Below, in pieces: positions 36,841 through 59,366 of a stretch of DNA of 64,000 nucleotides. The DNA comes from Myxococcota bacterium. Lineage in GTDB: Bacteria; Myxococcota_A; UBA9160; UBA6930. The notes under the pieces are model-generated. The model was not told the origin of the DNA. It worked only from the letters and a program-made list of their open reading frames with translations, and ran no database searches. The first letter of the stretch is position 1. Each line of letters begins with the position of its first letter. The DNA lies in contig OZ245015.1 in the NCBI GenBank assembly GCA_965223705.1, positions 4,478,234-4,542,233 of the forward strand, given 5' to 3'. A program made the translations under genes and the position numbers.

Positions 36841-36856
36841 CGGCATGACTCTTGCT
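36841..36856 (+). promoter_or_regulatory. Sigma-54 promoter (-24/-12)
   Basis: CGGCAT-GACTC-TTGCT just upstream of ATG 36869. Confidence 0.7.
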
Positions 36857-36868
36857 GACAATCGACGT

Positions 36869-38458
36869 ATGGAGCCGATCCCGCGAACCATCGAGGCGCT
36901 TCCGGATGGGCTGGTTGCGGCTCTCGATACGATCGGGAGCCCCGTCGAGCGCATCGAGACGCACATCTCCCACCTGGCCCTCACCGAAGGCCGTGTCTAC
37001 AAGCTCAGGAAAGCCGTCGCCTTCGATTTCGTGGATTTCGGTCGACGTGAGACACGGATGCGAGATTGCTGGAACGAAGTCCTTCTCAACCGCCGCTTGG
37101 CGCCGCGTGTCTACCTCGGAGTCGCTCCGTTCGAGCCGTACGAGAACGGCTTCCGCGTTGGAGAGATCGTCGACCCGGCGAGGATGCCCGTCGAAACAGC
37201 CGAGCGAGATTGTGAATGGGTCGTTGTGATGCGGCGTCTTCCGACGGGTCGGGACGCCGAATCGCTCTGGCACCGCGGCGATCTCGCGGAGGAACATGTC
37301 GACCGGCTCGCAGAGCACCTCGCGAGGTTCCACCGGGACTCGCGATCGGATCGTGGCTCGGGCGACCCCACAGATACCGTTCGCACCGTACTCCGATCGA
37401 TTCGCTCCCTCGAGGGCGCCGCTCGCTCGGACGCGAGTGCACGACTCGCCTGGTTGGTCCGGGAGTTCGAGATGCTCCACGGAAAGCTCTTTGCGGAGCG
37501 TCGCGCAGAAGGACGCTGGGTCGACGGCCACGGCGATCTGCGCCTCGAGCACGTGTGGTTCGATGATGCCAAAGAACCCGAAATCATCGACTGCGTCGAA
37601 TTCTCTGAAGATCTCCGCCTTGTCGACGCCGCGAACGAAGTTGCTTTCCTTTCGATGGATCTGCGCTTTCGCGGCGCCCATGCCCTCGCGGAACGCTTTC
37701 TTGCAAGCTACGCCGCCGCGGCCGACGACTTCGGGATCTATTCGGTCCTGCGCTACTACGAGGCCTACCGCGCGGCCGTGCGCGCCAAAGTGAGCGCGTT
37801 GCGTAACGAGGGCACACCCGAAGCGGAACGTCAGAGAGATCGCTATTTGGGCCTTGCGACACGCCTTCTCTCCGCACCCGGCCAAGGTCTGGTCATCGCG
37901 ACGACGGGGCACATCGGGTCCGGTAAGAGCAGCATCGCAGCGGAGCTCGCCCGCCGACTCCCCGCCGTCGTGATCCGTTCCGATGTCGTTCGCAAGCAGC
38001 TAGCGGGTGTCGAGCCGACGACCTCGCTTGCGACTTCATGGGGAGAGGGCAACTACAGCCTCGATCAGCGATCGAAGATCTACGACGCTCTTTTCGCTCG
38101 TGCGGAAGCCCCTCTGAATTCCGGACGTCACGTGATCCTCGACGCGTCCTTTGGTCGCCGCTCATGGCGCGACGCGCTCGCCGCCTGGGCCGCGTCTCAC
38201 CGCTTCACGGCCTGGATCGTCCACGCGGAGTGTCCACCTTCGGTGGTGCGGCAGCGACTCATCTTGCGAAGTCGCGAAGGGCGCTCGGCATCCGACGCGG
38301 GCCCTGAGCTCCTCGACCCGAGCCGTGCGGCGTACGAGGCGCCCACCGAGTGGCGCTCCGACCGACTCCGGTCCGTCGACACGGGCCGATCCGACTGGCG
38401 CGGGGCAGGGGTCGCGTCGCTCGCCGCCGATCTACTCGCCGCGCGCCTGTGCTCCTGA
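36869..38458 (+). CDS. Aminoglycoside phosphotransferase-like / AAA kinase fusion (Rv2004c-like)
   Basis: IETHIS, YKLRKAV, NRRLAP, DGHGDLRLEH, IIDCVEF, GHIGSGKS, VILDASF. Confidence 0.9.
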   Translation: MEPIPRTIEALPDGLVAALDTIGSPVERIETHISHLALTEGRVYKLRKAVAFDFVDFGRRETRMRDCWNEVLLNRRLAPRVYLGVAPFEPYENGFRVGEIVDPARMPVETAERDCEWVVVMRRLPTGRDAESLWHRGDLAEEHVDRLAEHLARFHRDSRSDRGSGDPTDTVRTVLRSIRSLEGAARSDASARLAWLVREFEMLHGKLFAERRAEGRWVDGHGDLRLEHVWFDDAKEPEIIDCVEFSEDLRLVDAANEVAFLSMDLRFRGAHALAERFLASYAAAADDFGIYSVLRYYEAYRAAVRAKVSALRNEGTPEAERQRDRYLGLATRLLSAPGQGLVIATTGHIGSGKSSIAAELARRLPAVVIRSDVVRKQLAGVEPTTSLATSWGEGNYSLDQRSKIYDALFARAEAPLNSGRHVILDASFGRRSWRDALAAWAASHRFTAWIVHAECPPSVVRQRLILRSREGRSASDAGPELLDPSRAAYEAPTEWRSDRLRSVDTGRSDWRGAGVASLAADLLAARLCS

Positions 38459-38932
38459 TCCGAAGTGGTCCTCGATGACCGACATAAGGTCCAACGCCGA
38501 CACGACGCCGCACAATCGGCCGTTGTGCTCGACCCAGACGCGATGCACTTTGCTTTCGCGCAAGCGCTTCGCGACTTCTGCGACCGGCGCGTCCCGTTCC
38601 ACCGTGAGCACTTGCTTGGTCATCACCTCGGAGACTTTCCGTTCCGAGAGGCGGTCCTGGAAATCGACGAGTTCTCCGGGCCAATCCGGCGCCGAGAACT
38701 CGAGCAGGTCGCGGAAGTAGTTGTTCGCGGCGAGCGCCGTCCCGTGTTCGTCGTCCTGCGCCCGCATCAGGTCCATCGTCGTGATGACGCCTTCGATCCG
38801 ACCCTCCTCCGAGATGACGGGCGCTCCGTGAATTCCTTCCTCGACGAATAGACGAAGTGCGTCTAGGAGAGAAATCTCGGGACTTACAGACACGATCGAT
38901 GCCGTCATCACATGACGGGCGGTGACTTCCAT
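38432..38932 (-). CDS. CBS domain protein
   Basis: ARHVMT..IHGAPV..GVITTMDL; VSEVMT..VHRVWV..GVVSALDL. Confidence 0.92.
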   Translation of the reverse strand: MEVTARHVMTASIVSVSPEISLLDALRLFVEEGIHGAPVISEEGRIEGVITTMDLMRAQDDEHGTALAANNYFRDLLEFSAPDWPGELVDFQDRLSERKVSEVMTKQVLTVERDAPVAEVAKRLRESKVHRVWVEHNGRLCGVVSALDLMSVIEDHFGSGAQARGE

Positions 38933-38957
38933 GCGTCGTCCTCCTCCGAAAACTGGC

Positions 38958-38973
38958 TGCACATCACGTGCCA
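38958..38973 (-). promoter_or_regulatory. Sigma-54 promoter
   Basis: TGGCAC-GTGAT-GTGCA upstream of 38932. Confidence 0.7.
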
Positions 38974-39000
38974 GCCTCGGAGCCGTGACTCCGGCGAAAC

Positions 39001-39038
39001 CGAGGCGACTCGCCTCAGGGTTGCGACTTCTTTTCACA
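39001..39038. promoter_or_regulatory. Tandem 17-bp palindromic boxes
   Basis: CGAGGC-GACTC-GCCTCA and TGCGAC-TTCTT-TTCACA. Confidence 0.55.
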
Positions 39039-39062: not shown

Positions 39063-39078
39063 TGGCATCGATTTTGAA
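39063..39078 (+). promoter_or_regulatory. Sigma-54 promoter (GA variant at -12)
   Basis: TGGCAT-CGATT-TTGAA upstream of 39126. Confidence 0.55.
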
Positions 39079-39125: not shown

Positions 39126-39821
39126 ATGGACGAGAAGAATTTCGAGCTGGATCTCGACACGGCGGGTTCGCAACCGGTCGCACGCGTCATGATGGTCGAA
39201 GCATCGGGCTTCACGCGAAGCGGCGTACCCACCGTGACCGTCGATTGCGAGAAGCCGCGGGACTTCGCGCGCGAGATCGATCGCTTGAAGAGCGAGCTTG
39301 ACGCGATCGCGGATCGAGCGGTAGCTGCTCTCGGCGAGGCGAATGCCGCGCGTTCGACATCGACCCCGCGAGCCCCGGAGCCCGCCGAAGAGAAGCCCCG
39401 AATCGACTCAGAGCTCACCGTATCGCAAGTGATGACTCGAGATGTCCGCACGGTGGAGCGGAACGACGTGATCGCCGTGGCGGACGAACTGATGCGCGTC
39501 GGGAGCTTTCGACATGTCGTCGTTCTCAACGAAGATCGCAGCGTGGCCGGCGTCGTGAGCCACCGAGACATCGTCTACGGCGCGCTCGCCTGGACCCTTG
39601 GACAGGGGCGGGACGCACATGACAAAGCACTCCGCGCCTATCCGGTAAAGAACGTCATGGCGGCGAATGTCGTAACGGTCGATTCCGATACACCGCTTCG
39701 CGAAGCGGGGAACCTGATGCTCGAGAAGAAGCTCGGGTGCTTGCCCGTAGTCGACGGAGGCGAGCTTGTCGGCATCCTCACCGAGGGTGACTTTTTGTAT
39801 CTACTCGCGGGGCGGGAGTAG
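39126..39821 (+). CDS. CBS domain protein with N-terminal extension
   Basis: VSQVMTRDV..FRHVVV; VKNVMA..LGCLPVV..GILTEGD. Confidence 0.9.
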   Translation: MDEKNFELDLDTAGSQPVARVMMVEASGFTRSGVPTVTVDCEKPRDFAREIDRLKSELDAIADRAVAALGEANAARSTSTPRAPEPAEEKPRIDSELTVSQVMTRDVRTVERNDVIAVADELMRVGSFRHVVVLNEDRSVAGVVSHRDIVYGALAWTLGQGRDAHDKALRAYPVKNVMAANVVTVDSDTPLREAGNLMLEKKLGCLPVVDGGELVGILTEGDFLYLLAGRE

Positions 39822-40970
39822 TTGCCGGAGCTCCCGGAGACGGCGCCTCTCTCTCTCCGGCAGCGCGACTTCGGCGTGAGCCCCGAAGCCCGCGGTGACG
39901 AGTTCTTCGAGCCGCCAGTAAGCGTTCCAACCGACCCGTTCGTTTCCGGGCGATCGAACAGCCGCCTCGAGGTAACTCTCGGTCTGGCCCGACCAGAAGG
40001 ACTGCGTCAGGCGGTCTTCGAGTCTGGCGAGGAGAAAATAGGCCTCGGAGAGTTGCGCGCGCAGGGTTTCGCTCTCCCTCGCAGCGTCGATCATTCTCAA
40101 CAAGATGCCTGAAGCCATGAGATCGTAGACGAGCCCCTCGCGCGAATCCTGAAACAGCGTGACGCTCGCGCCCCGCGCGGATAGCTGCCTCGCAGCTTCG
40201 AGCGTTTGCTCCGGAGGTGCGGCTTCGAGCGCCTTGAGAGCCTCGATCCAGATCGACAAGCGATTCCGCAGGTAGGACGGGACATCGTCCCGCGCACGGA
40301 ATTGTTCGAGCGCCCCGCGAGCCCGCGCGGGGTTCTGACGGACGCGGAGCGCAACCCGCAAGTACTCGAAGGGTTGGCCCGCCAGATCGAGTTCGACCGG
40401 AGAAGATCGCGGGTTCTGAAAGATTCCCTCCCAGGTTTGTAGCGATTTGTCGAAGCTACGACTCACGACCTGGAGACGCGCCTGCTCCATCTCCGAGAGT
40501 TTCTCGACCTGGAGTTCCCCGACCAGGCGTGCGGCGAAAGGAAAATCCGCCCCCGACGGGAAGCGCGTATGACAATCGATGCAGTTCTGCACAAGCATAT
40601 ACACGAAGGCCCGCGCATCTTCGTAGTTCCGCTCGCGAAAGAAGCGCGCCGCTTGCTCGGAATCTTCGAGCAACAGCTCGCTGAGCTCTTGAAATCCTCC
40701 GTCCCGCCGTTGCCCGTGCGATTCGATCTTGGCAGCGGCGGAGGAGAGCACGCGGAACTGCTTCTCGATCTCCTCGCGGTGCTGAGGGTCGGAGAAGCGC
40801 TTCTCGTCGAGACTCACGGGGAAGAGCTGGCTCAGCGCGGAGAAAGCCTCTCGCATGGCCGTGTTCGGCTCGGCCGACTCCGCCCCCGCCGGCGACGCGC
40901 ACCATTGGAGCGCGAGCGCGACCGCCCACACCAGATACACGAAACGGACCGGGGCCGTTGTTGTTCTCAC
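39801..40970 (-). CDS. Secreted monoheme cytochrome c, helical (paralog 1)
   Basis: Signal peptide; QNCIDCHTR; similar to 46434 and 49339 ORFs. Confidence 0.78.
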   Translation of the reverse strand: MRTTTAPVRFVYLVWAVALALQWCASPAGAESAEPNTAMREAFSALSQLFPVSLDEKRFSDPQHREEIEKQFRVLSSAAAKIESHGQRRDGGFQELSELLLEDSEQAARFFRERNYEDARAFVYMLVQNCIDCHTRFPSGADFPFAARLVGELQVEKLSEMEQARLQVVSRSFDKSLQTWEGIFQNPRSSPVELDLAGQPFEYLRVALRVRQNPARARGALEQFRARDDVPSYLRNRLSIWIEALKALEAAPPEQTLEAARQLSARGASVTLFQDSREGLVYDLMASGILLRMIDAARESETLRAQLSEAYFLLARLEDRLTQSFWSGQTESYLEAAVRSPGNERVGWNAYWRLEELVTAGFGAHAEVALPERERRRLRELRQLLPPRE

Positions 40971-41467
40971 GGGACGCTCTCCTTGCTCGTGACAAGAGGG
41001 TCGTTGTTCCCGACCCGGGTCGGATCCATCGGTTCAAGTCGCGCAGCGCTCCAACCCTTCGGGATCTCCCACGGATACGCTCGCGTCGGCAGGACTACCG
41101 TGCCGTATCGGTTCGGTTCCGCTTCGAGCAGGTACCAACCGAAAGCGACCAGTAGCCCGTCCTCGAAGATCGCCGGGATGAGCGTCTCGCGTCCTTCTGC
41201 GCCGGGCGGGTAGCGAACGAACACGATGCGTACGTAGCCGCCGTAGGGAGCTCTGCCGCACATCCAACCGGCGAGGTCGACGAGACGCGGGCCACCCCCC
41301 GCGATGGAAGCCTCGAGGAGGATGCTCTGCATCGCGGGGTTGTACGCAGAGCACGCCATCTCAACGAGACGGCTCTCCGAGACCGTGCGATGGCGGGCCG
41401 GCGTCGAACACGCCAGGTACATCGTCACCGCGGACCCGAGAAACACGATTGCGGCAGTGCGCCACAA
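40967..41467 (-). CDS. Putative lipoprotein (DUF3192-like C-terminal motif)
   Basis: Hydrophobic N-terminus with YLAC lipobox; PAIFEDGLLVAFGW; start uncertain. Confidence 0.5.
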   Translation of the reverse strand: MWRTAAIVFLGSAVTMYLACSTPARHRTVSESRLVEMACSAYNPAMQSILLEASIAGGGPRLVDLAGWMCGRAPYGGYVRIVFVRYPPGAEGRETLIPAIFEDGLLVAFGWYLLEAEPNRYGTVVLPTRAYPWEIPKGWSAARLEPMDPTRVGNNDPLVTSKESVP

Positions 41468-41483
41468 GATGGGGCGTTTCGGC

Positions 41484-41747
41484 TCAGTGCAGGCTTTTGC
41501 GAATGTGGCGATAGCCGTCGCGGATTTCTTCGAGGAGTAGTTTCGTGGCTTCCCGAACATCCTCCCCCTCCTCGGCCGCGACACGCCCCACCTCCGCAGC
41601 ACCGCGCTCGAAGGCGTGCCATTTGTTTTCCAGCGTGTCGAAAAGGTCCCGAAGCTCGGCTCCGCCGAGATGAATCTGGAGTTTCAGCTCATCTCGCATA
41701 TTGCGTAGCTTCAGCAATTCACCTTCGAACAGTCGGTCTGCACTCAC
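41484..41747 (-). CDS. Small coiled-coil hypothetical protein
   Basis: GGAGG RBS; RDELKLQIHLGGAE..W..EEIRDGY. Confidence 0.7.
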   Translation of the reverse strand: MSADRLFEGELLKLRNMRDELKLQIHLGGAELRDLFDTLENKWHAFERGAAEVGRVAAEEGEDVREATKLLLEEIRDGYRHIRKSLH

Positions 41748-41780: not shown

Positions 41781-41796
41781 TGCAGATTGCGTGCCG
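41781..41796 (-). promoter_or_regulatory. Sigma-54 promoter
   Basis: CGGCAC-GCAAT-CTGCA upstream of 41747. Confidence 0.7.
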
Positions 41797-41816: not shown

Positions 41817-42818
41817 ATGATCGACCATCGCCTGCTGAGCGGACTCGCCATGCTGGTGACCCTCACCGTCGCTGGCACCGCCGGGTTCATGTTCATCGAG
41901 GGGATGGGGCTGCTCGACGCGCTCTACATGACGGTCATCACGCTGTCGACCGTCGGTTATCGAGAAGTCGGCCCCCTGACGGACGCCGGTCGCTGGTTCA
42001 CGATCGGACTGATCGTGCTGGGGATCGGAGGCGTGTTCTACACGGCCGGAGCGCTCGCGGGGTTCGTGATAGAAGGTCGCTTGAATGACGTACTCGGGAG
42101 GCGTGGAATGCAGCGCGCGATCGATCGGCTCGAAAATCACGTGATTGTCTGTGGCCTCGGTCGCTTGGGGCGCGCGGTCTGCGATCGACTCGACGCTTCG
42201 ACGGTCGTCGTCGTCGACACGGACCCCGGGCGCCAATCAGAATGCGATGATGCCGGCTATCTCTTCCTGTGCGGTTCCGCACTCGAGGAGAGCGTACTAT
42301 CGGCCGCGGGGATCGAGCGCGCGCGGGCTCTGGTCGCGGCCACGCCGAGCGATTCGGACAACGTGTTCATCGCGTTGTCCGCGCGAGAACTCAATCCACA
42401 AGCCAAGATCCACGCGAGCGCGGAAACTTCCGTCGGAGTGAGGCGCCTCGGCTTGCTGGGCGCGACACAGGTTATTTCTCCGCATCATCTCGCTGGAGAG
42501 AGAATTGCGAACGCCCTGGTGCGACCCGGCGTCGTCGAGTTCCTGGAGCTATCCGACGCCGGTCGGGGAGCGGCCGTCGACCTCGAGGAAGTCGTCGTCT
42601 CCGCCTCGAGTCAGATCGAGGGCGTGTCGCTCGGTGCGCTGCGAGAGCGCGGACTTCACGTTTCCGTGATCGGGCTCAAACGCGGCGACCAACCGATCGA
42701 ACTCCACCCACCGCTCGATGCCGTCCTTTCCACCGACGATCACATCGTGGCGGTGGGTGACCGCTCGAATCTCGTTCGCCTCGCTGAATTGGCGAGTGGC
42801 GACGAACCCGCGGCGTAA
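41817..42818 (+). CDS. Potassium channel protein (pore + RCK/TrkA domains)
   Basis: ALYMTVITLSTVGY, HVIVCGLGRLG, TrkA-C end. Confidence 0.92.
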   Translation: MIDHRLLSGLAMLVTLTVAGTAGFMFIEGMGLLDALYMTVITLSTVGYREVGPLTDAGRWFTIGLIVLGIGGVFYTAGALAGFVIEGRLNDVLGRRGMQRAIDRLENHVIVCGLGRLGRAVCDRLDASTVVVVDTDPGRQSECDDAGYLFLCGSALEESVLSAAGIERARALVAATPSDSDNVFIALSARELNPQAKIHASAETSVGVRRLGLLGATQVISPHHLAGERIANALVRPGVVEFLELSDAGRGAAVDLEEVVVSASSQIEGVSLGALRERGLHVSVIGLKRGDQPIELHPPLDAVLSTDDHIVAVGDRSNLVRLAELASGDEPAA

Positions 42819-42829: not shown

Positions 42830-43975
42830 CTAGGCGGCATCCCGCATGTCGAGCGGCTTGGTTTCGATCTCTCGAAGCGCGGGTAGCACTTCTTTCGCGA
42901 ACAAGCGCATGCTCTTTTCCGCGGCCTCGATCGGCATCGAGCCGTACTTGAAGATGAAGGTCACTTCTTCGGCGCCGAACTCATGCGCGAGCTCCGTCGC
43001 GCGTGCGATCGTCTTCTCCGGCGTGCCCCAGGGATGTTCGTTGTAGAACCCGCGCAAGAACGGCGAAGGATCGTTCGCCAACATTTTTTGCACCTCGCCA
43101 TAGGACTCGTAGCCCTTGATGTGACCGAGGTGATCCCCGCGCAGCTCGTAGTGCCGGAGCGCGGAGTCCGCGTACTCGACCATGTAACGCTCGGCGTTCT
43201 CCTGCGCCTCCGACTCCGTCTCGGCGACGTAAGTCCAGACGGCGAGCTTGTTCCGAATCGGCTCGAAGCCCGCGGCTTGATGGAGCTTCGCGTACTTTTT
43301 GGCGGTTTCTAACGAGAGTCCGAGGCTCTGGGTCGGAATGACCAACGGATGAACGTTTTGCCGAGCGATGATCTCGACCGTCTCGTCCGTACCGCCGGCG
43401 CACCAGAGGTTCGAGCTCAAATCGTGGCTCGGCTGGGGGCGAATCCGAAGGCCTTGGATGTCGTAATGCTCGCCTTTGAAATCGCAACAACCGGTCGCGA
43501 GCAACTGCTGCAGGACCTGAATCGATTCGTCAAAGCGCGCTCGCGCTTCGGCCTGGTCGATGCCCAAGCCCTCGTACTCACGGCGCCCCAGCCCGCGGCC
43601 CACTCCGCAGATGATTTCGCGATCCGGCCCCAGAAACGTGTCGAGCATGCTGACGTCTTCGGCGACGCGCACGGGGTTGTGCCACGGCAGCACGACGACC
43701 ATGGTCGCGAGATCGATCCGCTCCGTGATCCCTGCGATGTAGCTCAAGTACTGGAGGGGATTGGTGACCATGGTGTAGGGCGTGAAGTGGTGCTCGATCG
43801 TCCACAGGGTGTCGAATCCTGTCTGGTCCGCGATTCGCGCGATATTGATCTCTTCGAGGAAGACTTCCTGATCGGACTTCTCGGGATGCCTGGCAACGGA
43901 TTCGCCGCGCTCTTCGGCCTCGTATCGATCCCAATCGGAATAGTTCTGGTTGAACAACGTGGCACCTATTCGCAT
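42830..43975 (-). CDS. LLM-class flavin-dependent oxidoreductase
   Basis: GFDTLWTIEHHF, PWHNPVRVAED, GVGRG, SMRLFAKEVLP. Confidence 0.92.
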   Translation of the reverse strand: MRIGATLFNQNYSDWDRYEAEERGESVARHPEKSDQEVFLEEINIARIADQTGFDTLWTIEHHFTPYTMVTNPLQYLSYIAGITERIDLATMVVVLPWHNPVRVAEDVSMLDTFLGPDREIICGVGRGLGRREYEGLGIDQAEARARFDESIQVLQQLLATGCCDFKGEHYDIQGLRIRPQPSHDLSSNLWCAGGTDETVEIIARQNVHPLVIPTQSLGLSLETAKKYAKLHQAAGFEPIRNKLAVWTYVAETESEAQENAERYMVEYADSALRHYELRGDHLGHIKGYESYGEVQKMLANDPSPFLRGFYNEHPWGTPEKTIARATELAHEFGAEEVTFIFKYGSMPIEAAEKSMRLFAKEVLPALREIETKPLDMRDAA

Positions 43976-44250: not shown

Positions 44251-44465
44251 TGACCGAAGGTGCGCTCGTGCAAGGGCTGTTTGAATCGCTCGTCGAGGAG
44301 GCCTCGCGGGAGGGGATTCCCGACGATGTCCTCGGGCGGCTTCTCATCGATCAAGTCGTCCGCCTCTGGAGCCGCAAAAGAAGCTTCGACGACATTCGCT
44401 CGGAGCTGCTGTTTGTCGCCGAAAATGTCGATCCCGATACCGATCACGAGTTCATGCGACCCTAA
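44250..44465 (+). CDS. Small hypothetical protein
   Basis: 71 aa ending ENVDPDTDHEFMRP; translationally coupled. Confidence 0.7.
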   Translation: MTEGALVQGLFESLVEEASREGIPDDVLGRLLIDQVVRLWSRKRSFDDIRSELLFVAENVDPDTDHEFMRP

Positions 44466-45582: not shown

Positions 45583-45614
45583 CATTTCGCCTCGAATCGT
45601 GTCGCTGAGCCACA
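45578..45614. promoter_or_regulatory. Tandem 17-bp palindromic boxes between convergent genes
   Basis: TGTGAC-ATTTC-GCCTCG and CGTGTC-GCTGA-GCCACA. Confidence 0.5.
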
Positions 45615-49229: not shown

Positions 49230-49240
49230 CGCACCCGCCA

Positions 49241-49276: not shown

Positions 49277-49293
49277 CGAACGATAGCGGTGCG

Positions 49294-51007: not shown

Positions 51008-51892
51008 TTAGGCGTCTGCCCCGCACGTCAGTACGGGGCAGTGCGCATACCGAGCGACCCGCGTTGCTACACTCCCGAGCAGGAGCTTGCGGAATCGCGT
51101 CCGTCCACGGGTACCCATCACAATCAAACCCGATGCGTTGGATTCGGCGCGCTCCACGATCTCCCGGGCCGCGTTGCCAACGGTGACTTGGAACGACGTC
51201 TTGACACCCTGCTCCTCCAGCGACTTCATCTCGTTGTGGATCTCTTGACGAGCGGCCTCGCGGATTTTCTCGCGGTCGTGGTTTGGAATCGGAATATCGA
51301 GAAACGCCGGCGGCACGTGTTCATAGACGTGGAGCAACTCGACTTCGGCGCCGTAGGCCCGCGCGAGCTTGCCCGCGACTGCAACGGCTTGGCGAGATTC
51401 ACCAGAGAAATCCGTCGGTACCAGGATCTGTTGAAGCGAGTCCCCTAGTGCGTGATCCGCTTTCACCGTGAGCACGGGGATCGACGCGATCCCGACGATC
51501 TTCTCCGTCGTGCTTCCGAGGAGCCCAACTTCAAGCCCCGAGTACCCATGAGAACCCATGACGATGACCGAGGCGTCCCAGCGCGACGCGGAATCCGCAA
51601 TCGCTTCCGCAACGACCGATCCATCTTCGACCAGTTCCGACGAGGCTTGAATCCGATGATCGGACACTTCGCGGACGGCCTTCTCGAGCAAGCCCCTCGC
51701 TTTCGACGACCACTCGTCGGACCATTCTTCCGAAACCGAGAGTTCGAGCCCGGCGGGAAACGCCTGGGGCGGCGGCGCGACGTGGAGTATCCGAACTTCG
51801 CCGCCCACCGCTGCAGCGAGACTGCGCGCCGACGCAAGTGCCGCATCGGAGTGAGGCGAGAAATCGTGAGGAACGAGAATTCTTGAAAACAC
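51008..51892 (-). CDS. Universal stress protein (tandem domains)
   Basis: ILVPHDFS, GSHG..LGSTTE, GTRG..LGSVA. Confidence 0.94.
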   Translation of the reverse strand: MFSRILVPHDFSPHSDAALASARSLAAAVGGEVRILHVAPPPQAFPAGLELSVSEEWSDEWSSKARGLLEKAVREVSDHRIQASSELVEDGSVVAEAIADSASRWDASVIVMGSHGYSGLEVGLLGSTTEKIVGIASIPVLTVKADHALGDSLQQILVPTDFSGESRQAVAVAGKLARAYGAEVELLHVYEHVPPAFLDIPIPNHDREKIREAARQEIHNEMKSLEEQGVKTSFQVTVGNAAREIVERAESNASGLIVMGTRGRTRFRKLLLGSVATRVARYAHCPVLTCGADA

Positions 51893-51937: not shown

Positions 51938-51993
51938 TGCATGCCCCGTGCCAGAAGGCTTGAGACGAAATGACACACGGCACGAGTCTTGCT
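51938..51993. promoter_or_regulatory. Back-to-back sigma-54 promoters flanking one 17-bp palindrome
   Basis: minus TGGCAC-GGGGC-ATGCA (51938-51953); TGAGAC-GAAAT-GACACA (51961-51977); plus CGGCAC-GAGTC-TTGCT (51978-51993). Confidence 0.72.
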
Positions 51994-52020: not shown

Positions 52021-52488
52021 ATGCTCTGTTACTTGGTCGCGACCGACTTCTCCCCAGAAGCGGATCACGTGATTCGATGCGTGCTGGATCTCGCCAGGAA
52101 GCACCCGGTCAAGGTCATCCTCATCCACTCGACCGATCCTCTGGGATCGCTGTCTCCGCCCGTCGATGCGTGGAGCACGGCGATTCAACGCGCGCGGCGT
52201 TCGCTGTCGCGGTGGCGTCGTGCGATCGAGGCCGAAGGGCACGCCTGCGACACGGTCCTCTCCGCCCGAGCCCCGGCCGAGGCGATCGCGCGTTGTGCGG
52301 ACGAGTGGACCGCAGAGCTCATTGCGATTTCGTCGCGTAGTTCTCGCGGAGATCCCAACGAACTGGGCCACGTGACGAAACGCGTACTGGAGCTCGCGAG
52401 ATGCCCGGTGATGGTGGTCCCGGCAGAGAACGAGGGGAATCTACCGGGCCGCCAGGCGAGCGACTTCGCCGAGCAGCGCTTCGTTTGA
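52021..52488 (+). CDS. Universal stress protein (single domain)
   Basis: LVATDFS..LGHVTKRVLELARCPVMVV. Confidence 0.85.
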   Translation: MLCYLVATDFSPEADHVIRCVLDLARKHPVKVILIHSTDPLGSLSPPVDAWSTAIQRARRSLSRWRRAIEAEGHACDTVLSARAPAEAIARCADEWTAELIAISSRSSRGDPNELGHVTKRVLELARCPVMVVPAENEGNLPGRQASDFAEQRFV

Positions 52489-54333
52489 GAATGGCTTCGC
52501 CAGCAGCGGAAAACCGGAGTCGATGGCGCCTCGCGCCTCGAGTGCGCGATTCGGATAGCCCGACATGAGGAGGATGGGAAGACTCGGCAGAACACCGCGC
52601 AAGCGGCGCGCGAGTTCGACGCCGGTCATACCGGGCATCACGACGTCGGAAAGCAAGAGATCGATTTCGGATGGCCTCGAGGCGGCGCGGTCGAGGGCTT
52701 CTTCGGGTGTCGTCGCGACCCACACCGTGTGGCCGGCGCCCTCGAGAACTTCTCGCGCAAGATCTCGAACGAGCGCGTCGTCCTCGACGAGGAGAATCGT
52801 TGCGCGTCGATCGTCCCGCTGCGGTGACGGGCCGATACCCCCTCGCTCGGCAAGCGGTGAAGCTGCCAAGGGAATCACCACGTCAAAACGACTTCCCTCG
52901 CCCTCTCGGGTCGTAACGTCGAGACCCCAACCGCTCTGCTTCACGATTCCGTGGACGGTCGACAAGCCCAGACCGGTTCCTTTGCCCACTTCTTTCGTCG
53001 TGAAGAAAGGCTCGAAGATGCGCTCCACGATTTCCGGGGGCATCCCCACCCCGTTGTCGGAAATCGAGAGCTTGGCGGAAGGGCCGGGGGCCATCTCCAA
53101 GCGGCTCGCATCGTCGGCCTCGACGTTTACAAGCCCGGTCTCGATGCGAAGCGTCCCCCCATCGGGCAGCGCGTCTCCCGCGTTCACGATCAGGTTCATC
53201 GTGACTTGATCGAGGAGCGTCGGATCCGCGCGAATGGGCAGCGGTTCGGGGTGCAACGACGTTTCGACTTCGATGTCTTCACCGATAATTCGCTCCGTCA
53301 GATCGATGACCTGCAAGACAGAGCGATTCATGTCGAGCGATTCGGGTTGCGTGACGTGGCGCCGCCCGAACGCCAGCAGCTGTTGGGTAAGCGCGGCACC
53401 ACGCTCCGCCGCCTGTGTGATGCGGCGGACGGCGCGCTGCGATCGGTCGTCCGCCGCGAGCCGGCCGGCGATGAGATCCGCCGACCCGTGGATCGACGTC
53501 AAGAGATTGTTGAAGTCGTGCGCGACGCCACCGGCGAGCTGGCCGACCGCTTCCATCCGTTGTGCCTGAATCACTTGCCGCTGGAGTTCGCGCCGCTCGC
53601 TGACATCGAGAATCAACGCCACGAACTCATGCGCGCTCGCGTCGTGGTGGAGATGGACCTCCACATCGTAGTCGGATCCGTCTTTTCGCCGATGCGTCGT
53701 TTCGAAGGTGAGTGCGGACTTGCCGCCGCTCTTCACCGGCTCGATCAACTCTCGGAAGGCCGCATCATCGAATTTCGGCTTGATGTCGACCGGCGTCATC
53801 TCCCGCAGCTCATCGATTCGGTAGCCCAGATTTTCCCGCGCTCTTCGATTGGCTTGGAGAAAGCGGAGGGTTTCGTCATCGAAGACGAAAATCTCATTGA
53901 GTGCGTCTTCGACGATGCGGCCGAGGCGTATCGCCTCGTTGTCCCGAGTCCGCGTTTCCGTCAGATCGCGGAGAATTCCGGTAAACAAACGGCGGTCGCC
54001 GATCTGGCTCTCACCGACCGCCAGATGTGCGGGAAACACCGTGCCGTCTTTTCGTCTCGCTTCGACGTCGCGGCCGATTCCGATGATGTGGGCTCTGCCG
54101 GTCTTCGCGTAGGTTTCGAGATAGCTGTCGTGCCGGTCGGCGATGTCCGAGGGCATCAGGATCGATACGTTCTTCCCGACCAGCTCACTCGCCTCGTACC
54201 CGAAGAGCGTCCTGGTCGCGCGATTCACCTGCTCGATGGTTCCTCGCTCATCGATTGTGATGACGGCGTCAATCGCGGTGTCGAGGACCGCCTCGGCGCG
54301 CGCGAGCCGCTCGCGGAGCGAATCGTTTTCCAC
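52441..54333 (-). CDS. Hybrid sensor histidine kinase with FixL-like heme-PAS, second PAS and receiver
   Basis: GKNVSILMP..RHDSYL..TG..HIIGIGR..RKDG; VAHDFNN; NAGDA, DNGVG, GTGLGL; LLSDVVMP. Confidence 0.92.
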   Translation of the reverse strand: MENDSLRERLARAEAVLDTAIDAVITIDERGTIEQVNRATRTLFGYEASELVGKNVSILMPSDIADRHDSYLETYAKTGRAHIIGIGRDVEARRKDGTVFPAHLAVGESQIGDRRLFTGILRDLTETRTRDNEAIRLGRIVEDALNEIFVFDDETLRFLQANRRARENLGYRIDELREMTPVDIKPKFDDAAFRELIEPVKSGGKSALTFETTHRRKDGSDYDVEVHLHHDASAHEFVALILDVSERRELQRQVIQAQRMEAVGQLAGGVAHDFNNLLTSIHGSADLIAGRLAADDRSQRAVRRITQAAERGAALTQQLLAFGRRHVTQPESLDMNRSVLQVIDLTERIIGEDIEVETSLHPEPLPIRADPTLLDQVTMNLIVNAGDALPDGGTLRIETGLVNVEADDASRLEMAPGPSAKLSISDNGVGMPPEIVERIFEPFFTTKEVGKGTGLGLSTVHGIVKQSGWGLDVTTREGEGSRFDVVIPLAASPLAERGGIGPSPQRDDRRATILLVEDDALVRDLAREVLEGAGHTVWVATTPEEALDRAASRPSEIDLLLSDVVMPGMTGVELARRLRGVLPSLPILLMSGYPNRALEARGAIDSGFPLLAKPFSNEALLGEVARLAAR

Positions 54334-54374: not shown

Positions 54375-55268
54375 CTAGGGATTGACGGTCAACACGGAGC
54401 AAGGCGCCGTGCGAACGACACGCTCGGCGACGCTCCCGAGAAGCACGTGTTTGATTCCCGTGTGACCGTGCGTCCCCATGACGACGAGGTCGGCACCGAT
54501 CGCTTTTGCGCGCTCGTTGATGATCCCCGGCGCCCAACCTTCCTGTACGTACGTATCGATCGACACTTTCTCGCGGGTTAGGGATTCCTCGAGCTCTTTC
54601 ACGCGCTTTTGCGCAGCCTGGCGAACCGCCATGAGGTACTCGGTCGACAACGGGACACCGTAGGGCGCCGCAGTGGTCGTCGGCGACTGGGTCACATGGA
54701 CGATTTCCACGGAGGCGCCGTGATCTTCCGCGAGATCCATCGCGAACGACGCGGCGAAGGCGGCGGGTTCGGAGAAATCCGTCGCGACAATCATCTTCTT
54801 GATGGGTTCGCGCTGTTTTTCCTCACTTCCCTTCACGCAAAACACCGGAGCGTGAATGGTGCGCAGCGTCTTTTCCGTAACGCTCCCGAGCATCAAATGC
54901 TTGATCCCGGAATACCCGTGCGTCCCCATGACGATCATGTCGCCTTCTTTCGCCTGGTACGTGGTTTCGATGGCGTCGATCGGTGCGTCTTCGACCACCG
55001 TCTCCGTCACGTGAAGGCCGGCTCCGCGCGCTCGATTGGCCGCGACGGCGAGGTCGGTTTCGGCGTTTTCTCGCATGCGCTCCCATGCCCCGTCCGCCAT
55101 CGAACTCGAGAATTCGTGCCGGAAGCCGCTCATATCGAGGGGGAGGATCGCGTGGACCAGGTGGAGCCAGGCATTCGCGCGCTCGCCAATCGCGATCGCA
55201 CGGGTGAGCGCAGCCTCCGAGACGTCGGAAAAATCAAGAGGGACGACGATGTTCGAGATTTGCGACAT
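54375..55268 (-). CDS. Universal stress protein (tandem domains)
   Basis: VVPLDFS, GTHG..LGSVTE, GTHG..LGSVAE..APCSVL. Confidence 0.94.
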   Translation of the reverse strand: MSQISNIVVPLDFSDVSEAALTRAIAIGERANAWLHLVHAILPLDMSGFRHEFSSSMADGAWERMRENAETDLAVAANRARGAGLHVTETVVEDAPIDAIETTYQAKEGDMIVMGTHGYSGIKHLMLGSVTEKTLRTIHAPVFCVKGSEEKQREPIKKMIVATDFSEPAAFAASFAMDLAEDHGASVEIVHVTQSPTTTAAPYGVPLSTEYLMAVRQAAQKRVKELEESLTREKVSIDTYVQEGWAPGIINERAKAIGADLVVMGTHGHTGIKHVLLGSVAERVVRTAPCSVLTVNP

Positions 55269-55294: not shown

Positions 55295-55353
55295 AGCAAG
55301 TCGTGTGCCAATTGGCGCCTCACCGCCGGCCGGCGGTGAGGCGTTTTGTCCCA
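55295..55353 (-). promoter_or_regulatory. Sigma-54 promoter plus upstream 17-bp palindrome
   Basis: TGGCAC-ACGAC-TTGCT (55295-55310 minus); TGAGGC-GTTTT-GTCCCA (55337-55353). Confidence 0.78.
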
Positions 55354-55371: not shown

Positions 55372-56739
55372 CTAGGAACGTGACGCATTGCACTCGCCAG
55401 CCCGCTCTTCGCGCCGGTAGAGTGTTCGCCGGTTGACCCCCAGGATCCGGGCAGCCTCGGACTTGCTTCCCCCGACCTCTTCGAGAACCCGCTCTGTGTA
55501 GCGATCCGTGAGTTCGTGGAGGGTCCAGCGCGAACGCGCCGCTTCACTCAAGAGCTCTTGCTCGAAGTCTCTAGATACCTCCCGGGTCGAAAGCGCGAGG
55601 TCTTTCGGGGTGATCTCATCCCCTCGGGCGAGCACCAAGGCGCGCTCGATGGCGTTCTCGAGTTCCCGGGCGTTGCCTTCCCACGGGCAGTCGAGCAGCG
55701 CCTGCTCCGCTTCGGCGGAGAGGCGCGGCAACGGTTCCGTATCGTGTTTTCGAAGGAACGCTTCAGCGAGAAGGGGAATGTCCTCCGGCCGTTCGCGAAG
55801 CGGCGGAATCTCGATGGGGATGACATTCAATCGATAGTAGAGGTCCTGCCGAAAACGCCCGTCCTCGATGTCTCGACGGAGATTGCGGTTGGTCGCTGCA
55901 ATGATCCGGACGTCGACTTTCGTCGCCTTCGTGCTGCCGACCGGTCGAATCTCTCGATCCTGTAAGACGCGAAGGATCTTCGCCTGAAGGGCGGGGGGCA
56001 TGTCGCCGATCTCGTCGAGGAAGAGCGTGCCACCGCTCGCTTCTTCGAAAAGGCCGGTTTTGTTCGTGTGCGCTCCCGTGAAGGACCCCTTCACATGACC
56101 GAAGAGTTCGCTCTCGAGAAGACCCTCGGGCATGGCCGTGCAGTTGATCGGAACGAAGGGCTTTTCGGAGCGATTGCCCGCAAAGTGGATCGTGCGCGCG
56201 ACCACCTCTTTCCCGGTGCCGCTCTCGCCGGTGATGAGGACGTTGCTCGCACTGATGGCGACGCGCTCGATCAAGCCGTAGATCTCTTGCATCGCGCGGC
56301 TCTTGCCGATGAGATCGCCGTAGGCAGAAACGTCCGACACAGCCCGCCGCAAAGCGCGATTCTCGCGCTCCAACGTTCGAAACGTGAAAGCGCGTTCCAG
56401 AGAGACCAACAGCTCGTCATTCCGGAACGGTTTCGTGATGTAGTCGAACGCTCCTTCGCGCATGGCGCGCACGGCGGAATCGATGCTGGCAAACCCCGTC
56501 ATGAGAATGACGGGCGTGTATGGCCGCAGCTCTCGGAGCTCGGGAAGGAGTTCCATCCCGTCTTTCCCCGGCATGCGGATGTCAGAGAGCACCAAGCCGA
56601 ACTCTCGGTCAGAGACGGCCAGCAGAGCGGCTTCGGCGCTCTCGACCAGACTCACTTCAAACCCGTTGTCGCTGAGGAGATCTTCCAGCGTCTCGCGGAC
56701 GAGGGGGTCATCATCAACGACGAGCACGGTGCGGGACAT
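55372..56739 (-). CDS. Sigma-54-dependent response regulator (NtrC/AtoC family)
   Basis: Receiver (VVDDD, SDIRMP), GESGTGKE, ESELFGH..GSFTGA, FLDEIG, Fis HTH. Confidence 0.96.
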   Translation of the reverse strand: MSRTVLVVDDDPLVRETLEDLLSDNGFEVSLVESAEAALLAVSDREFGLVLSDIRMPGKDGMELLPELRELRPYTPVILMTGFASIDSAVRAMREGAFDYITKPFRNDELLVSLERAFTFRTLERENRALRRAVSDVSAYGDLIGKSRAMQEIYGLIERVAISASNVLITGESGTGKEVVARTIHFAGNRSEKPFVPINCTAMPEGLLESELFGHVKGSFTGAHTNKTGLFEEASGGTLFLDEIGDMPPALQAKILRVLQDREIRPVGSTKATKVDVRIIAATNRNLRRDIEDGRFRQDLYYRLNVIPIEIPPLRERPEDIPLLAEAFLRKHDTEPLPRLSAEAEQALLDCPWEGNARELENAIERALVLARGDEITPKDLALSTREVSRDFEQELLSEAARSRWTLHELTDRYTERVLEEVGGSKSEAARILGVNRRTLYRREERAGECNASRS

Positions 56740-56776: not shown

Positions 56777-56868
56777 AGCAGAAAACGTGCCGACCGCTAG
56801 CGCGATGAGGGCGTCCTAGACTGACCCAAATGTGTCAAAGCGTCACATTATTGAGGCTAAATGCCACA
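56777..56868 (-). promoter_or_regulatory. Sigma-54 promoter and tandem 17-bp palindromes upstream of the activator gene
   Basis: CGGCAC-GTTTT-CTGCT (56777-56792 minus); TGTGTC-AAAGC-GTCACA (56831-56847); TGAGGC-TAAAT-GCCACA (56852-56868). Confidence 0.75.
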
Positions 56869-58095
56869 AATGCTCCTTCCCCAAACCCACAATTCGCGGG
56901 CTAGGAGTGCGGCACACAGCCAAGCGCCCGCGTAGGGAACCCAGTTCGGCGCGCGCACGGCCGGCTCGGCCCCGCCCTTGGCGCGCACCCGGATCAAGGC
57001 CCAATCGATGAGGCCGAAGAGTGCCAGCGTGATCCACGAGGTCGTGCGCGCCAGGCGCTCGAGCGGAAACGATGTCGCCAGTACGAGAACGAGGACGGTC
57101 AACAACACGGTGGCGCGCAGCGGCGTCCGGGTGCGGGGGTGCAAATGCCGAAGAGCTCCCGGGACGCCCCCTTCCCGAGCGAGCCCGTAGACGAGGCGGG
57201 AGCCCATGATCAGCTGGATCAGGATCCCGTTCAGCATGCCGGCCGCCGCGATCGCGCTGATGACGACAGCCCCCTCGCGCCCGGTGCGTTCGAACACCAG
57301 AGTGAGCGGAGCTGCGCTCCGAGCGAGCTCAGCGGCGGGCACGGTCAAAACCGCGGCAAGGGACGCCATTGCGTACAGCGCCGCGGTCACCACGAGCGTG
57401 ATCGCGATTGCCCGCGGGACCGTGCGGCGCGCGTCCCGCACCTCCTCGGCGACGTTGACCATGTCTTCGAAACCGAGGAAAGCGTAAAAGCCCAAGACCG
57501 CGCCCGAGAGCACGCCCCAGAACGGAAATGCCGGAACGCCACCCGCGGGAATCGCGTCGGTCCCCGTGCCGCCGAGCAGATACGCAAAGGCTGCGCCGGC
57601 GACCCAGACGATCCCGCCGATCTCGAGCACCGTGAGGAAAGAAGCCAAGGCGACCGAGCCCCGAACTTTCCAACTCGCCGCCGCGCCTGTGGCGAGGACA
57701 ACGAGAAGAAGAGAAGGGAGGTATGGAATTTCGACGACCTCACGGAGGTACCCGATGCACGCGCGAGACAAGGTCGCCGCCGAGGTCACAGCGGCCAACG
57801 CGACCAGGAGGCCTCCGAAATGGGCTGCTCGTTCGAACCCGAAACCCGCCTTCAAGTAGACGGCCTCGCCCGCACAGCGCGGATAGCGCGAAGCCAGCTC
57901 TCCAAAGGAGAGCGCTGTCAGGGCGGCGAGCCCGGCTGCGACCAGGAAAGACGCGGGCGCCCAGACGCCTGCCGCGCCCGCGATTTTCCCTGTGAGGGCA
58001 TAGATCCCGGCACCGACTGTGGTGCCGAGTCCATAGAGCACCAGCATCCGCAGCGAGAGCGTTCTGTCGAGCGATGCGACTTCAGGCGGACTCAC
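56857..58095 (-). CDS. APC-family amino acid permease
   Basis: GTTVGAGIY, ELASRYP..AGE, FYAFLGFED..AEEV, SRLVYGLAR. Confidence 0.92.
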   Translation of the reverse strand: MSPPEVASLDRTLSLRMLVLYGLGTTVGAGIYALTGKIAGAAGVWAPASFLVAAGLAALTALSFGELASRYPRCAGEAVYLKAGFGFERAAHFGGLLVALAAVTSAATLSRACIGYLREVVEIPYLPSLLLVVLATGAAASWKVRGSVALASFLTVLEIGGIVWVAGAAFAYLLGGTGTDAIPAGGVPAFPFWGVLSGAVLGFYAFLGFEDMVNVAEEVRDARRTVPRAIAITLVVTAALYAMASLAAVLTVPAAELARSAAPLTLVFERTGREGAVVISAIAAAGMLNGILIQLIMGSRLVYGLAREGGVPGALRHLHPRTRTPLRATVLLTVLVLVLATSFPLERLARTTSWITLALFGLIDWALIRVRAKGGAEPAVRAPNWVPYAGAWLCAALLARELWVWGRSICGI

Positions 58096-58549
58096 GTACC
58101 GAGGTTTCCGCGGGCTCCGGCTGTTTTCCGACGACGAGGACGGGGCACTCCGCGCGGCGCAGGGTTCGTTCCGCGACGCTTCCCAGTACGAAATAGTCGA
58201 GCCCCGTCGTTCCGCGGGTCCCCATCACGATCATGTCCGCCGAAAGCTCCTTCGCGCGAGTCAGGATGACGTCTGCAGGACGTCCGTCGCGAACTTCGGC
58301 AGTCACCTCGGGGATCGAGTTTGCGACTTGATCCCGAAGGTCTTGCAGCCGCTTGTCGGCTTCGTCGCGGGCGCGCTCAATCATTTCGAGCGGGTAAGTC
58401 CACTTGTCCACAAACGTGTCCGGAAGGGAAAAGGCGTGCAGCAAGTGAAGTCGAGAGTCGAACGCCCGGGCGAAGAACTTCGCTTCTTCGAGCGCTCTCG
58501 CCGCGTCGGTCGAAAAATCGGTCGCTACGAGAAGAAGATCGAGCTTCAT
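58082..58549 (-). CDS. Universal stress protein (single domain)
   Basis: LLVATDFS, GTRG..LGSVAE..AECPVL. Confidence 0.93.
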   Translation of the reverse strand: MKLDLLLVATDFSTDAARALEEAKFFARAFDSRLHLLHAFSLPDTFVDKWTYPLEMIERARDEADKRLQDLRDQVANSIPEVTAEVRDGRPADVILTRAKELSADMIVMGTRGTTGLDYFVLGSVAERTLRRAECPVLVVGKQPEPAETSVRESA

Positions 58550-58552
58550 CGT

Positions 58553-59002
58553 CTACTCCGGCTCGGGGATCACAATGGGATCGTCGCGCAGAAGATTCTC
58601 GGACAGCACCGAAGCCTCTTCTTCTTCCATATCGTTTTGAAGGAGCTTCACGAAGCCGAGCGAGAGCAACGCCAAGGTGTTCTGATCGACCCGCGAGGCG
58701 TCGCCGATCAACGAATCCAGCATGCTGCGCTGGCGAACGTGTTCGTCCTGAAAGCGTCGAACGCGCTCCGGCCCCCATGCGTCGACTTGCTCGAGGACCG
58801 GCACCAAACGCGCTTCCTCGAAGTCCATGTGGCGGTGGAGGTGTGCGACGAAGCGGCGCAGGTCAGCCGCCAACACCTCGCCATGTACATTTTCTCGAAG
58901 GGTCTCGAGCGCTTCCCGCTCGATCGACAAGAGCTCTTTGCGAAGCTGCTGGTGTTGCTCGAGGATGACCGCGCGCGTCTCACCGGGGCTCAACTCTTCC
59001 AT
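58553..59002 (-). CDS. Hemerythrin-like (HHE) domain protein
   Basis: EQH, HMDFEEARLVP, DEH, DMEEEE. Confidence 0.75.
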   Translation of the reverse strand: MEELSPGETRAVILEQHQQLRKELLSIEREALETLRENVHGEVLAADLRRFVAHLHRHMDFEEARLVPVLEQVDAWGPERVRRFQDEHVRQRSMLDSLIGDASRVDQNTLALLSLGFVKLLQNDMEEEEASVLSENLLRDDPIVIPEPE

Positions 59003-59005
59003 CGA

Positions 59006-59248
59006 CTAACCCTTCCCCGCCGGCGGACCGTTGTCCCGGAGGTGCCAGAGGTTCCACACCACCATTCCGAAGCCGACCACCAGCAAGGTCGTTGGCATCC
59101 AGTAGAACGCGAGGATGTTGCCCAGATCGTGAGCCCATCCCCGTCCGAGGCCGGGATCGGTCCGCAGGGTGCCGACGAACCAGAGCATTCCCATCACGAT
59201 CGCGACCACACCGCCGGCCGCGTTCCACACTCGATCGACGTTCCACAT
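59006..59248 (-). CDS. Small two-TM hypothetical protein
   Basis: GAGGAG RBS; two hydrophobic segments; first gene after sigma-54 motif. Confidence 0.6.
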   Translation of the reverse strand: MWNVDRVWNAAGGVVAIVMGMLWFVGTLRTDPGLGRGWAHDLGNILAFYWMPTTLLVVGFGMVVWNLWHLRDNGPPAGKG

Positions 59249-59288
59249 CGGGCTCTCCTCTCGATCTGTGTCGCTGGAAGCTCAAAAC

Positions 59289-59366
59289 AGCAAAGTTCAT
59301 GCCGTGGTGACCGGTGTGACGAAATGCCTCAGCCTGCGCGCCCACCCGGATGGCCCGAAACTTGCT
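59289..59366. promoter_or_regulatory. Divergent sigma-54 promoters with central 17-bp palindrome
   Basis: minus CGGCAT-GAACT-TTGCT (59289-59304); TGTGAC-GAAAT-GCCTCA (59315-59331); plus TGGCCC-GAAAC-TTGCT (59351-59366). Confidence 0.72.

Follow-up and report, generated by a model that had tools for sequence, protein, structure and literature searches.

We examined a 64,000-nucleotide stretch of DNA from a Myxococcota bacterium (assembly GCA_965223705.1, contig OZ245015.1, positions 4,478,234 to 4,542,233; hereafter the window), in which a first-pass annotation had marked fourteen sigma-54 promoter motifs between positions 36841 and 59366. The names of homologs, and the presence of its relatives in a phylum-wide sample around a Myxococcales record, also place the organism in Myxococcota. 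The motifs fall in one part of the window. They lie in a 22.8-kb block that is probably the core of a sigma-54 regulon answering low oxygen through a heme-PAS kinase and the NtrC-like activator encoded beside it. According to Pfam, the block encodes six Usp, three CBS-pair proteins, two hemerythrins, an Hsp20, an APH+AAA_33 fusion, an APC permease, a TrkA channel, a Crp/Fnr factor, a luciferase-like enzyme, a PAS-PAS-HisKA-HATPase-REC kinase and a REC-AAA+-HTH activator, a gene set that resembles, by analogy of content, known low-oxygen survival sets. The features are listed below; scores come from the two models described in the following sections, and minus-strand motifs are numbered, as in the first-pass annotation, from the low end of the 16-mer.

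36841..36856, +: sigma-54 motif, 15.0 bits, preceding an ATG by 13 nt (if real, nearly leaderless) and lacking an enhancer within 90 bp
36869..38458, +: APH-like phosphotransferase and AAA_33 kinase fusion (Pfam)
38432..38932, -: CBS-pair protein (Pfam)
38958..38973, -: sigma-54 motif, 18.3 bits
39001..39038: tandem palindromes offset by 21 bp, one at 39001 (12.3 bits) and a weak one at 39022 (5.7 bits)
39063..39078, +: GG-N10-GA variant, 8.9 bits, uncertain
39126..39821, +: CBS-pair protein, extended at the N terminus (Pfam)
39801..40940, -: exported CxxCH protein, paralog a (no Pfam match)
41450..41486: two palindromes in tandem, offset by 20 bp (13.4 and 16.1 bits); 41250-41500 has no sigma-54 motif of at least 5 bits
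41484..41747, -: 87-aa protein without assigned function
41781..41796, -: sigma-54 motif, 15.2 bits, lacking an enhancer within 90 bp
41817..42818, +: TrkA-type K+ channel (Pfam), without its own motif
42830..43975, -: luciferase-like monooxygenase (Pfam), probably an interloper; sigma-70-like site at 44057-44029
44462..45124, -: Crp/Fnr-family regulator without cysteines (Pfam)
45157..45582, +: hemerythrin (Pfam)
45578..45614: two palindromes in tandem (16.0 and 10.9 bits) where convergent genes meet; 45100-45640 has no sigma-54 motif of at least 5 bits
45616..46422, -: tandem Usp (Pfam)
46434..47582, -: exported CxxCH protein, paralog b
47615..47707: two divergent sigma-54 motifs (16.8 and 14.6 bits); at 47667 a weak candidate palindrome, scoring 2.4 bits in the relatives-only model
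47762..48211, +: Hsp20 / alpha-crystallin (Pfam)
48272..49171, -: tandem Usp (Pfam)
49214..49309: divergent sigma-54 pair, 16.5 and 19.0 bits, flanking tandem palindromes at 49241 (15.0 bits) and 49260 (13.2 bits)
49339..50499, +: exported CxxCH protein, paralog c, a predicted four-helix bundle ending in CxxCH followed by helical repeats
50511..50975, +: membrane protein (no Pfam match)
51008..51892, -: tandem Usp (Pfam)
51938..51993: back-to-back sigma-54 pair, 24 nt between -24 boxes, with one 18.2-bit palindrome (51961-51977) at gaps of 7 and 0
52021..52488, +: single Usp (Pfam)
52441..54333, -: hybrid kinase PAS-PAS-HisKA-HATPase-REC, PAS1 resembling the FixL heme-PAS (Pfam and alignment)
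54375..55268, -: tandem Usp (Pfam), its gene 41 nt upstream of that for the kinase
55295..55353, -: sigma-54 motif, 20.8 bits, and palindrome at 55337 (18.4 bits), gap 26
55372..56739, -: NtrC-like activator, REC-AAA+-HTH_8 with a GSFTGA loop (Pfam)
56777..56868, -: the activator's own sigma-54 motif, 14.8 bits, with palindromes at 56831 and 56852 at gaps of 38 and 59
56857..58095, -: APC amino-acid permease (Pfam)
58082..58549, -: single Usp (Pfam)
58553..59002, -: hemerythrin (Pfam)
59006..59248, -: 80-aa membrane protein, no family
59289..59366: divergent sigma-54 pair, 13.7 and 13.8 bits, around a single palindrome at 59315 (18.9 bits), gaps 10 and 19
59399..59845, +: CBS-pair protein (Pfam), followed by tRNA-Arg and tRNA-Ser at 59858-60188

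The sigma-54 motif cluster

All fourteen motifs were recovered where they had been annotated. Thirteen read GG-N10-GC and score 13.7-20.8 bits with a position weight matrix trained, to avoid circularity, on 76 intergenic consensus matches from the genome outside the window. The remaining one, 39063+, is GG-N10-GA, and at its score the background gives 3.5 sites per 22.8 kb, so that alone it is not significant; it is an uncertain promoter, and its position is the sole argument in its favour. At a cut-off of 13 bits the block has 13 sites against 0.61 expected from the contig C1 background (121 sites in total), an enrichment of about 21-fold that makes it the genome's top window at that cut-off, and 300 Markov-1 control sequences averaged 0.39 sites with a maximum of 4. 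The enrichment over genome background that the first-pass annotation had anticipated is thus borne out, as is the orientation of the motifs, each of which faces a start codon 13-55 nt past the -12 element. The five divergent pairs that it counted, with -24 to -24 spacings of 89, 61, 64, 24 and 46 nt, hold only if the weak GA site is included. Its statement that the first 36 kb lack comparable motifs needs amending for 30020+ (12.1 bits, intergenic and plausible) and 17345- (14.7 bits, intragenic and antisense). Genes in the span without a sigma-54 motif of their own are those for the TrkA channel, the luciferase-like enzyme, the Crp/Fnr factor and the hemerythrin at 45157+. The genome encodes an RpoN-box protein at C1 1925582, and matches to the IHF consensus in the block fall inside genes only.

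That the motifs are chance matches or silent sigma-54 binding sites is extremely improbable, given the enrichment found with an outside-trained matrix, the uniform orientation before starts and their retention in relatives, where loci carrying the activator gene (defined below) have 110 sites in 558 kb compared with 4 in 159 kb of flanking DNA. At the level of DNA sequence, we regard the motif cluster as confirmed and the regulon core as well supported.

As a separate observation, 30020+ precedes a run of genes at 30020-35010 encoding a nucleotidyltransferase (NTP_transf_5), PqqD, and kinase-like and glycosyltransferase-like proteins.

A palindromic candidate enhancer and the neighbouring activator

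A 17-bp palindrome, TGnGGCA-N3-TGCCnCA, often in tandem at 19-21 bp start to start, was first visible by eye in the block. A matrix built from nine hand-picked window sites was circular and was replaced by a model relearned de novo from 40 relatives (41 genomes with the source genome, G000): palindromic expectation-maximization on 110 of their upstream regions, with the window sequence excluded, gave TGnGGCAnnnTGCCnCA, and under this model the candidates at 47667 and 39022 score only 2.4 and 5.7 bits. We then asked how often a site of at least 10 bits lies within 90 bp of each of the 179 genome promoters scoring at least 12 bits. Such sites accompany 9 of the window's 13 promoters (or, as divergent pairs share sites, 6 of 9 intergenic regions) and 5 of the 8 promoters of a block at 3.34 Mb, compared with 2/158 elsewhere (0/22 at 3.65 Mb, 0/10 at 1.82 Mb, 0/7 flagellar and 2/119 others). 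The presence of the palindrome at the window and the 3.34 Mb block and its absence from the other islands suggest that the first two share one regulator and that the others do not. The physically clustered RpoN regulon proposed by the first-pass annotation stands as an enriched cluster, though not as one restricted to the block, since the same palindrome recurs at C1 3.34-3.37 Mb and at two lone promoters. The palindrome, the heme sensor and the low-oxygen theme were no part of that annotation.

The candidate regulator is the NtrC-like activator at 55372-56739. Orthologs (at least 520 bits, 57-65% identity) occur in 30 of the 40 relatives, giving 31 loci, of which 29 could be scored and two were too short. 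A sigma-54 motif stands ahead of the activator gene at 24 of the 29, and 19 of these also have the palindrome at a gap of 35-42 or 56-61 bp, matching the window's 38 and 59. Membership of the activator gene in its own regulon, as first annotated, is in keeping with this conservation; the positive feedback also claimed is suggested by motifs only. Within the relatives as a whole the palindrome is found at 56 of 110 promoters (in-sample) versus 1 of 36 at Nmp-type loci, a comparison set of 20 protoglobin loci (L159-L178) from other Myxococcota. The genes around the activator recur too: over the 31 loci we count Usp at 27, CBS at 21, the 87-aa protein at 14, hemerythrin at 11, the APH-AAA33 fusion and CxxCH proteins at 10 each and Hsp20 at 3, and none of the 31 has the Crp/Fnr, TrkA or luciferase-like genes.

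Binding of the palindrome by the Crp/Fnr-family factor encoded at 44462-45124, which would modulate or repress the sigma-54 promoters, would explain sites abutting the -24 box; its gene lies inside the block, and the half-sites resemble CRP's TGTGA. The motif of the Burkholderia cenocepacia lxa locus, TGA-N6-TCA, is likewise described as Anr/Fnr-like in the available part of its account (PMC3721108). This possibility is nonetheless very remote, because the palindrome spans 17 bp rather than CRP's 16, its tandems are offset by 19-21 bp, and its occurrence follows that of the activator gene through the order, where none of the 31 relative loci has the Crp/Fnr gene; the Crp/Fnr protein has no other blastp match in G000.

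The placement of the palindromes is unusual. Typical sigma-54 enhancers lie 70-150 bp upstream, according to the accessible text of one account (PMC3844500). Of 71 site-promoter gaps in the relatives, 34 measure 36-41 bp and 2 are shorter than 36 (in-sample for the motif but not for its position); in the source genome, at slightly looser thresholds, 16 of the 24 gaps below 70 bp are under 36 bp. A gap of 38 puts the centre of the site near -73 and gaps of 0-28 put it at about -35 to -63, so the predicted window enhancers are unusually close to the -24 box, at 0-30 bp, and would probe the lower limit of the sigma-54 activation loop length. The short gaps keep the helical phase of gap 38 (p 0.003 at 10.5 bp), which is modest support as the pairs are non-independent. 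At 51938-51993 a single 18-bit palindrome fills the 24 bp between two -24 boxes. Sites nearest to a -24 box might drive transcription in one direction while obstructing it in the opposite one.

The second part of the regulon occupies C1:3338260-3351455 and 3365796-3366722. Its genes encode two Usp, a formate/nitrite channel, an amino-acid (carbamate-type) kinase, an ABC exporter, small c-type cytochromes, a LysM L,D-transpeptidase and an Lpp-like lipoprotein.

The sensor kinase and the likely signal

PAS1 of the window kinase matches FixL structures (E 6e-32), keeps the proximal His and distal Arg when aligned to 8js5 and 2cmn, and is the sole FixL-type PAS in the source genome, which is 95% complete and has no protoglobin. 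The protein as a whole is not FixL: it scores 194.6 bits against a cut-off of 850 for full-length FixL, and its best match is CckA-like. When used as a query for related loci, it returned only generic hybrid kinases of 32-47% identity, which were uninformative on context.

Most relatives have a different sensor in this position. The kinase at the ortholog locus carries a protoglobin in 21 of 31 cases and a FixL-type PAS in 1, while the core is cut by a contig end in 2 and 7 have none (the protoglobin-HisKA-HATPase kinase was called by Pfam at three loci and by tblastn at all). The one FixL-type case, in G028, places a GAF and a FixL-type PAS on the relatives' kinase core (52% to the globin-kinase core, same H-box). 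FixL-type PAS domains are present in 11 of the 41 genomes, and all three of the ortholog-bearing genomes that have no protoglobin (G000, G019 and G028) have one. A predicted heme-type sensor domain adjoins the activator across the order. The usual sensor appears to be a protoglobin kinase wired directly to the activator. In some genomes a FixL-type PAS would take the place of the protoglobin: G028 has it on an unchanged kinase core, the window genome on a CckA-like one. Two unrelated heme folds at the same position provide the best evidence for a heme-binding gas as the signal.

Elsewhere in the order, G025, G012 and G019 (L193-L195) have FixL-PAS kinases on the globin-kinase core (51-55%), distant from the activator, and in L194 (G012) and L195 (G019) a sigma-54 motif and a solitary receiver gene come after the kinase gene. 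The small-genome relatives (2.1-3.2 Mb; G001, G002, G004, G007, G011, G016 and G034, including both same-genus genomes), several of them incomplete, have no match to the activator ortholog, protoglobin or FixL-PAS.

In the mechanism we propose, the heme-PAS kinase would detect low oxygen and phosphorylate the neighbouring NtrC-like activator, which would bind the tandem palindromes beside the -24/-12 boxes and open the promoters of the Usp, CBS, hemerythrin, Hsp20 and heme-c proteins and of its own gene. From sequence comparison we infer as likely that the activator binds the palindrome, that kinase and activator are partners, that oxygen is the signal and that induction follows a fall in oxygen.

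The same regulon and enhancer might instead be switched on by exposure to oxygen (or to nitric oxide, NO, or carbon monoxide) through an ancestral protoglobin kinase without an inverter. Hemerythrins and a cytochrome c'-like fold can serve oxygen or NO protection, and 29 of the 31 relative loci have no NmpS/NmpT-like extra receiver. FixL, by contrast, is active without oxygen, and its PAS sits on the globin-kinase core in G028, G025, G012 and G019. The protoglobin kinase AfGcHK/NmpU is described, in the parts of the papers available, as autophosphorylating with oxygen bound and as needing NmpS to invert the signal (PMC6211767, PMC11841059). Against activation by oxygen, which we judge unlikely, stands also the Usp/CBS/Hsp20 set, hypoxia-induced in the lxa locus and in the mycobacterial DosR regulon according to the accessible text (PMC3721108, PMC5309233). 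The natural globin-to-FixL swap on one core raises the question of how an oxygen-activated globin type could drive a low-oxygen regulon without an inverter.

It is also conceivable, but quite unlikely, that the heme-PAS hybrid kinase is nothing more than a regulon output, another kinase phosphorylating the activator and the cognate one having been lost or moved. Its distinct phospho-accepting helix and C-terminal receiver would be in line with this, as would a quick tree in which the window activator branches outside the other orthologs. Opposed to it are the facts that the kinase bears the genome's only FixL-type PAS, that it does so in the island, where the relatives keep a heme kinase, and that G000 has no protoglobin to offer in its place.

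Returning to a low-oxygen regulon run by the kinase and its neighbour, several observations weigh against it. The phospho-accepting helix of the window kinase reads HDFNN, compared with HEIGTPM in the relatives; the kinase carries its own C-terminal receiver; and no G000 kinase has the relatives' core (best 38%). Since this kinase has a divergent helix, a CckA-like core and its own receiver, the case for pairing it with the activator is that their genes are neighbours and probably lie on a common transcript. With some 20 sigma-54 activators encoded in the genome, the palindrome could belong to a different one, and the relatives do not count as independent samples. No strong palindrome lies within 90 bp of four window promoters out of 13 (36841+, 41781..41796- and the 47615-/47692+ pair), and the strong tandems at 41450/41470 and 45578/45598 have no adjacent sigma-54 motif; these promoterless tandems (41450-41486 and 45578-45614) may act as enhancers at a distance or be left over from a rearrangement. 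At gaps of 0-11 bp the polymerase would have little room. On polarity, the oxygen-active AfGcHK/NmpU precedent and the general absence of an extra receiver pull one way and the deoxy-active FixL the other. G000 has no heme-copper oxidase matching a relative's CcoN, unlike the NmpR regulon.

Related systems and other features

NmpRSTU of M. xanthus comprises, in the portions of the reports available, a protoglobin kinase, an autoregulated NtrC-like activator and CBS, Usp and hemerythrin genes, and is induced in hypoxia (PMC11841059, PMC6211767). The block has in common with it sigma-54 promoters, an autoregulated NtrC-like activator (here at motif level), tandem palindromic enhancers, a heme oxygen-sensor kinase (protoglobin in most relatives) and CBS, Usp and hemerythrin targets, but it is without the NmpS (REC-kinase)/NmpT (REC-REC) relay and without protoglobin, and has a FixL-type PAS and many more Usp genes. 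The enhancers are also distinct, being GCGCA-N5-TGCGC with 14-15 nt between sites in the published system, as are the recognition helices (GINRRTLYRR in the window, GISxRKIQYK/R at Nmp-type loci). With up to 2 mismatches, GCGCA-N5-TGCGC is present at 3/13 window and 19/110 relative promoters versus 16/36 at Nmp-type loci, one of which has it at the published 14-nt tandem spacing. An extra receiver is found at 2 of the 31 relative loci, while several Nmp-type loci show the NmpS/T arrangement. In quick trees, the Nmp-type activators form one clade (Shimodaira-Hasegawa-like approximate likelihood ratio test, SH-aLRT, 99) apart from that of the window (SH-aLRT 100 with one paralog), although a sister grouping of the two is not rejected (approximately unbiased test, p-AU 0.078); the NmpR clade was recognised by synteny and motif, and MXAN_4240 of M. 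xanthus is itself not in the tree. By these comparisons the block would work like NmpRSTU but through a different binding site, with an activator from a separate clade and without the NmpS/T relay, and is likely a differently wired counterpart of the known myxobacterial pathway.

We note that the Nmp-type loci themselves carry Usp in 13/20 cases and CBS in 10/20, and that in several of them globin kinase and activator are directly paired, NmpS/T not being universal.

A wider proposal, which we put forward tentatively and consider rather doubtful as a whole, is that of an order-wide, previously undescribed sigma-54 dormancy switch, independent of NmpR, whose kinase has a globin or a FixL sensor. 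Its promoters would here have been compacted by whole helical turns until the activator acts from sites 0-30 bp from the -24 box; a single site would serve both polymerases of a back-to-back pair, and the DNA would loop hardly or not at all. Literature searches, with most subscription papers and supplements outside their scope, found nothing on this activator, the palindrome or a FixL-PAS/sigma-54/Usp system.

Other systems share parts of the design. Mycobacteria use the DosS/T-DosR pair, not sigma-54; DosS and DosT are GAF-heme sensors, DosR is a LuxR-type regulator, and we take Rv2626c to be a CBS protein and Rv2004c an APH-AAA33 protein. Those two genes, with several Usp and HspX, belong to the DosR regulon in the text available (PMC5309233), a likeness to the block in content. 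The lxa locus, a single physical cluster of 50 genes with six Usp and Hsp20 and a motif at 17 intergenic points and a few outlying loci, is similar in layout; its motif differs, and no sigma-54 activator is described in the accessible part of its account (PMC3721108). Near-matches in the block to TTGAT-N4-ATCAA / TGA-N6-TCA (up to 2 mismatches, without an enrichment test) are mostly intragenic, and one overlaps the -12 end of 36841+. Rhizobial FixL-FixJ provides the parallel for a heme-PAS with proximal His and distal Arg (PDB 8js5, 1dp6, 1d06), the differences being that the window PAS belongs to a CckA-like hybrid kinase and that its likely partner is a sigma-54 activator instead of FixJ. 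ZraSR of E. coli has a single nearby 17-bp site. It answers an envelope/zinc signal with two transcription units, and the window activator scores 406 bits against a ZraR cut-off of 760. The likeness lies in its divergent zraP/zraSR RpoN spacer and autoregulated pair, as given in the available text (PMC8743547). Sigma-54 motifs before Usp genes have been noted in Planctomycetia (PMC12316311, accessible portion). The present analysis adds a named activator, a predicted binding motif and a gene list for a likely low-oxygen programme of an uncultured Myxococcota order, and hints that one more regulator has been put in charge of the Usp/CBS/Hsp20/hemerythrin survival kit.

The exported CxxCH proteins (39801-40940, 46434-47582 and 49339-50499) are three paralogs, 29-46% identical, from a family of proteins of ~385 aa with a single CxxCH, 86 homologs and no family name. 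C122/H126 and His77 are invariant and Met31 nearly so. The model (predicted local distance difference test score, pLDDT, 91) has an N-terminal four-helix bundle ending in CxxCH, then helical repeats; the bundle aligns to cytochromes c' and b562 and to Kusta0087/88 at Z 10-11, where ~13 is advised for bundles, and a Foldseek search with the model gave no match at E<=0.001. A likeness to class II cytochrome c is suggestive only.

Other sigma-54 islands exist in the genome. At a cut-off of 11 bits the C1 3.65 Mb block ranks first (19 sites versus 13), followed by those at 1.82 and 3.34 Mb, with sites that are partly in the training set. The denser island at C1:3646000-3687000 holds general-stress genes and its own activator; a third, at C1:1823700-1833900, is seemingly a partial duplicate of it (catalase, CsbD-, PRC- and BON-like by eye). 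By eye, C1:1844024-1849839 resembles an operon for a soluble diiron monooxygenase that includes a GroEL-like gene.

At the right end of the block, a 505-aa open reading frame at 58328-59845+ was rejected as a miscall, the real genes being the minus-strand Usp, hemerythrin and 80-aa protein genes and the CBS gene from 59399. Recent foreign origin is not supported by GC content (62-64% versus 64.7%), despite the two tRNAs flanking this end. Between tRNA-Arg and tRNA-Ser, at 59935-60098, lie short GCGAGCG-rich repeats and a hairpin-like stretch.

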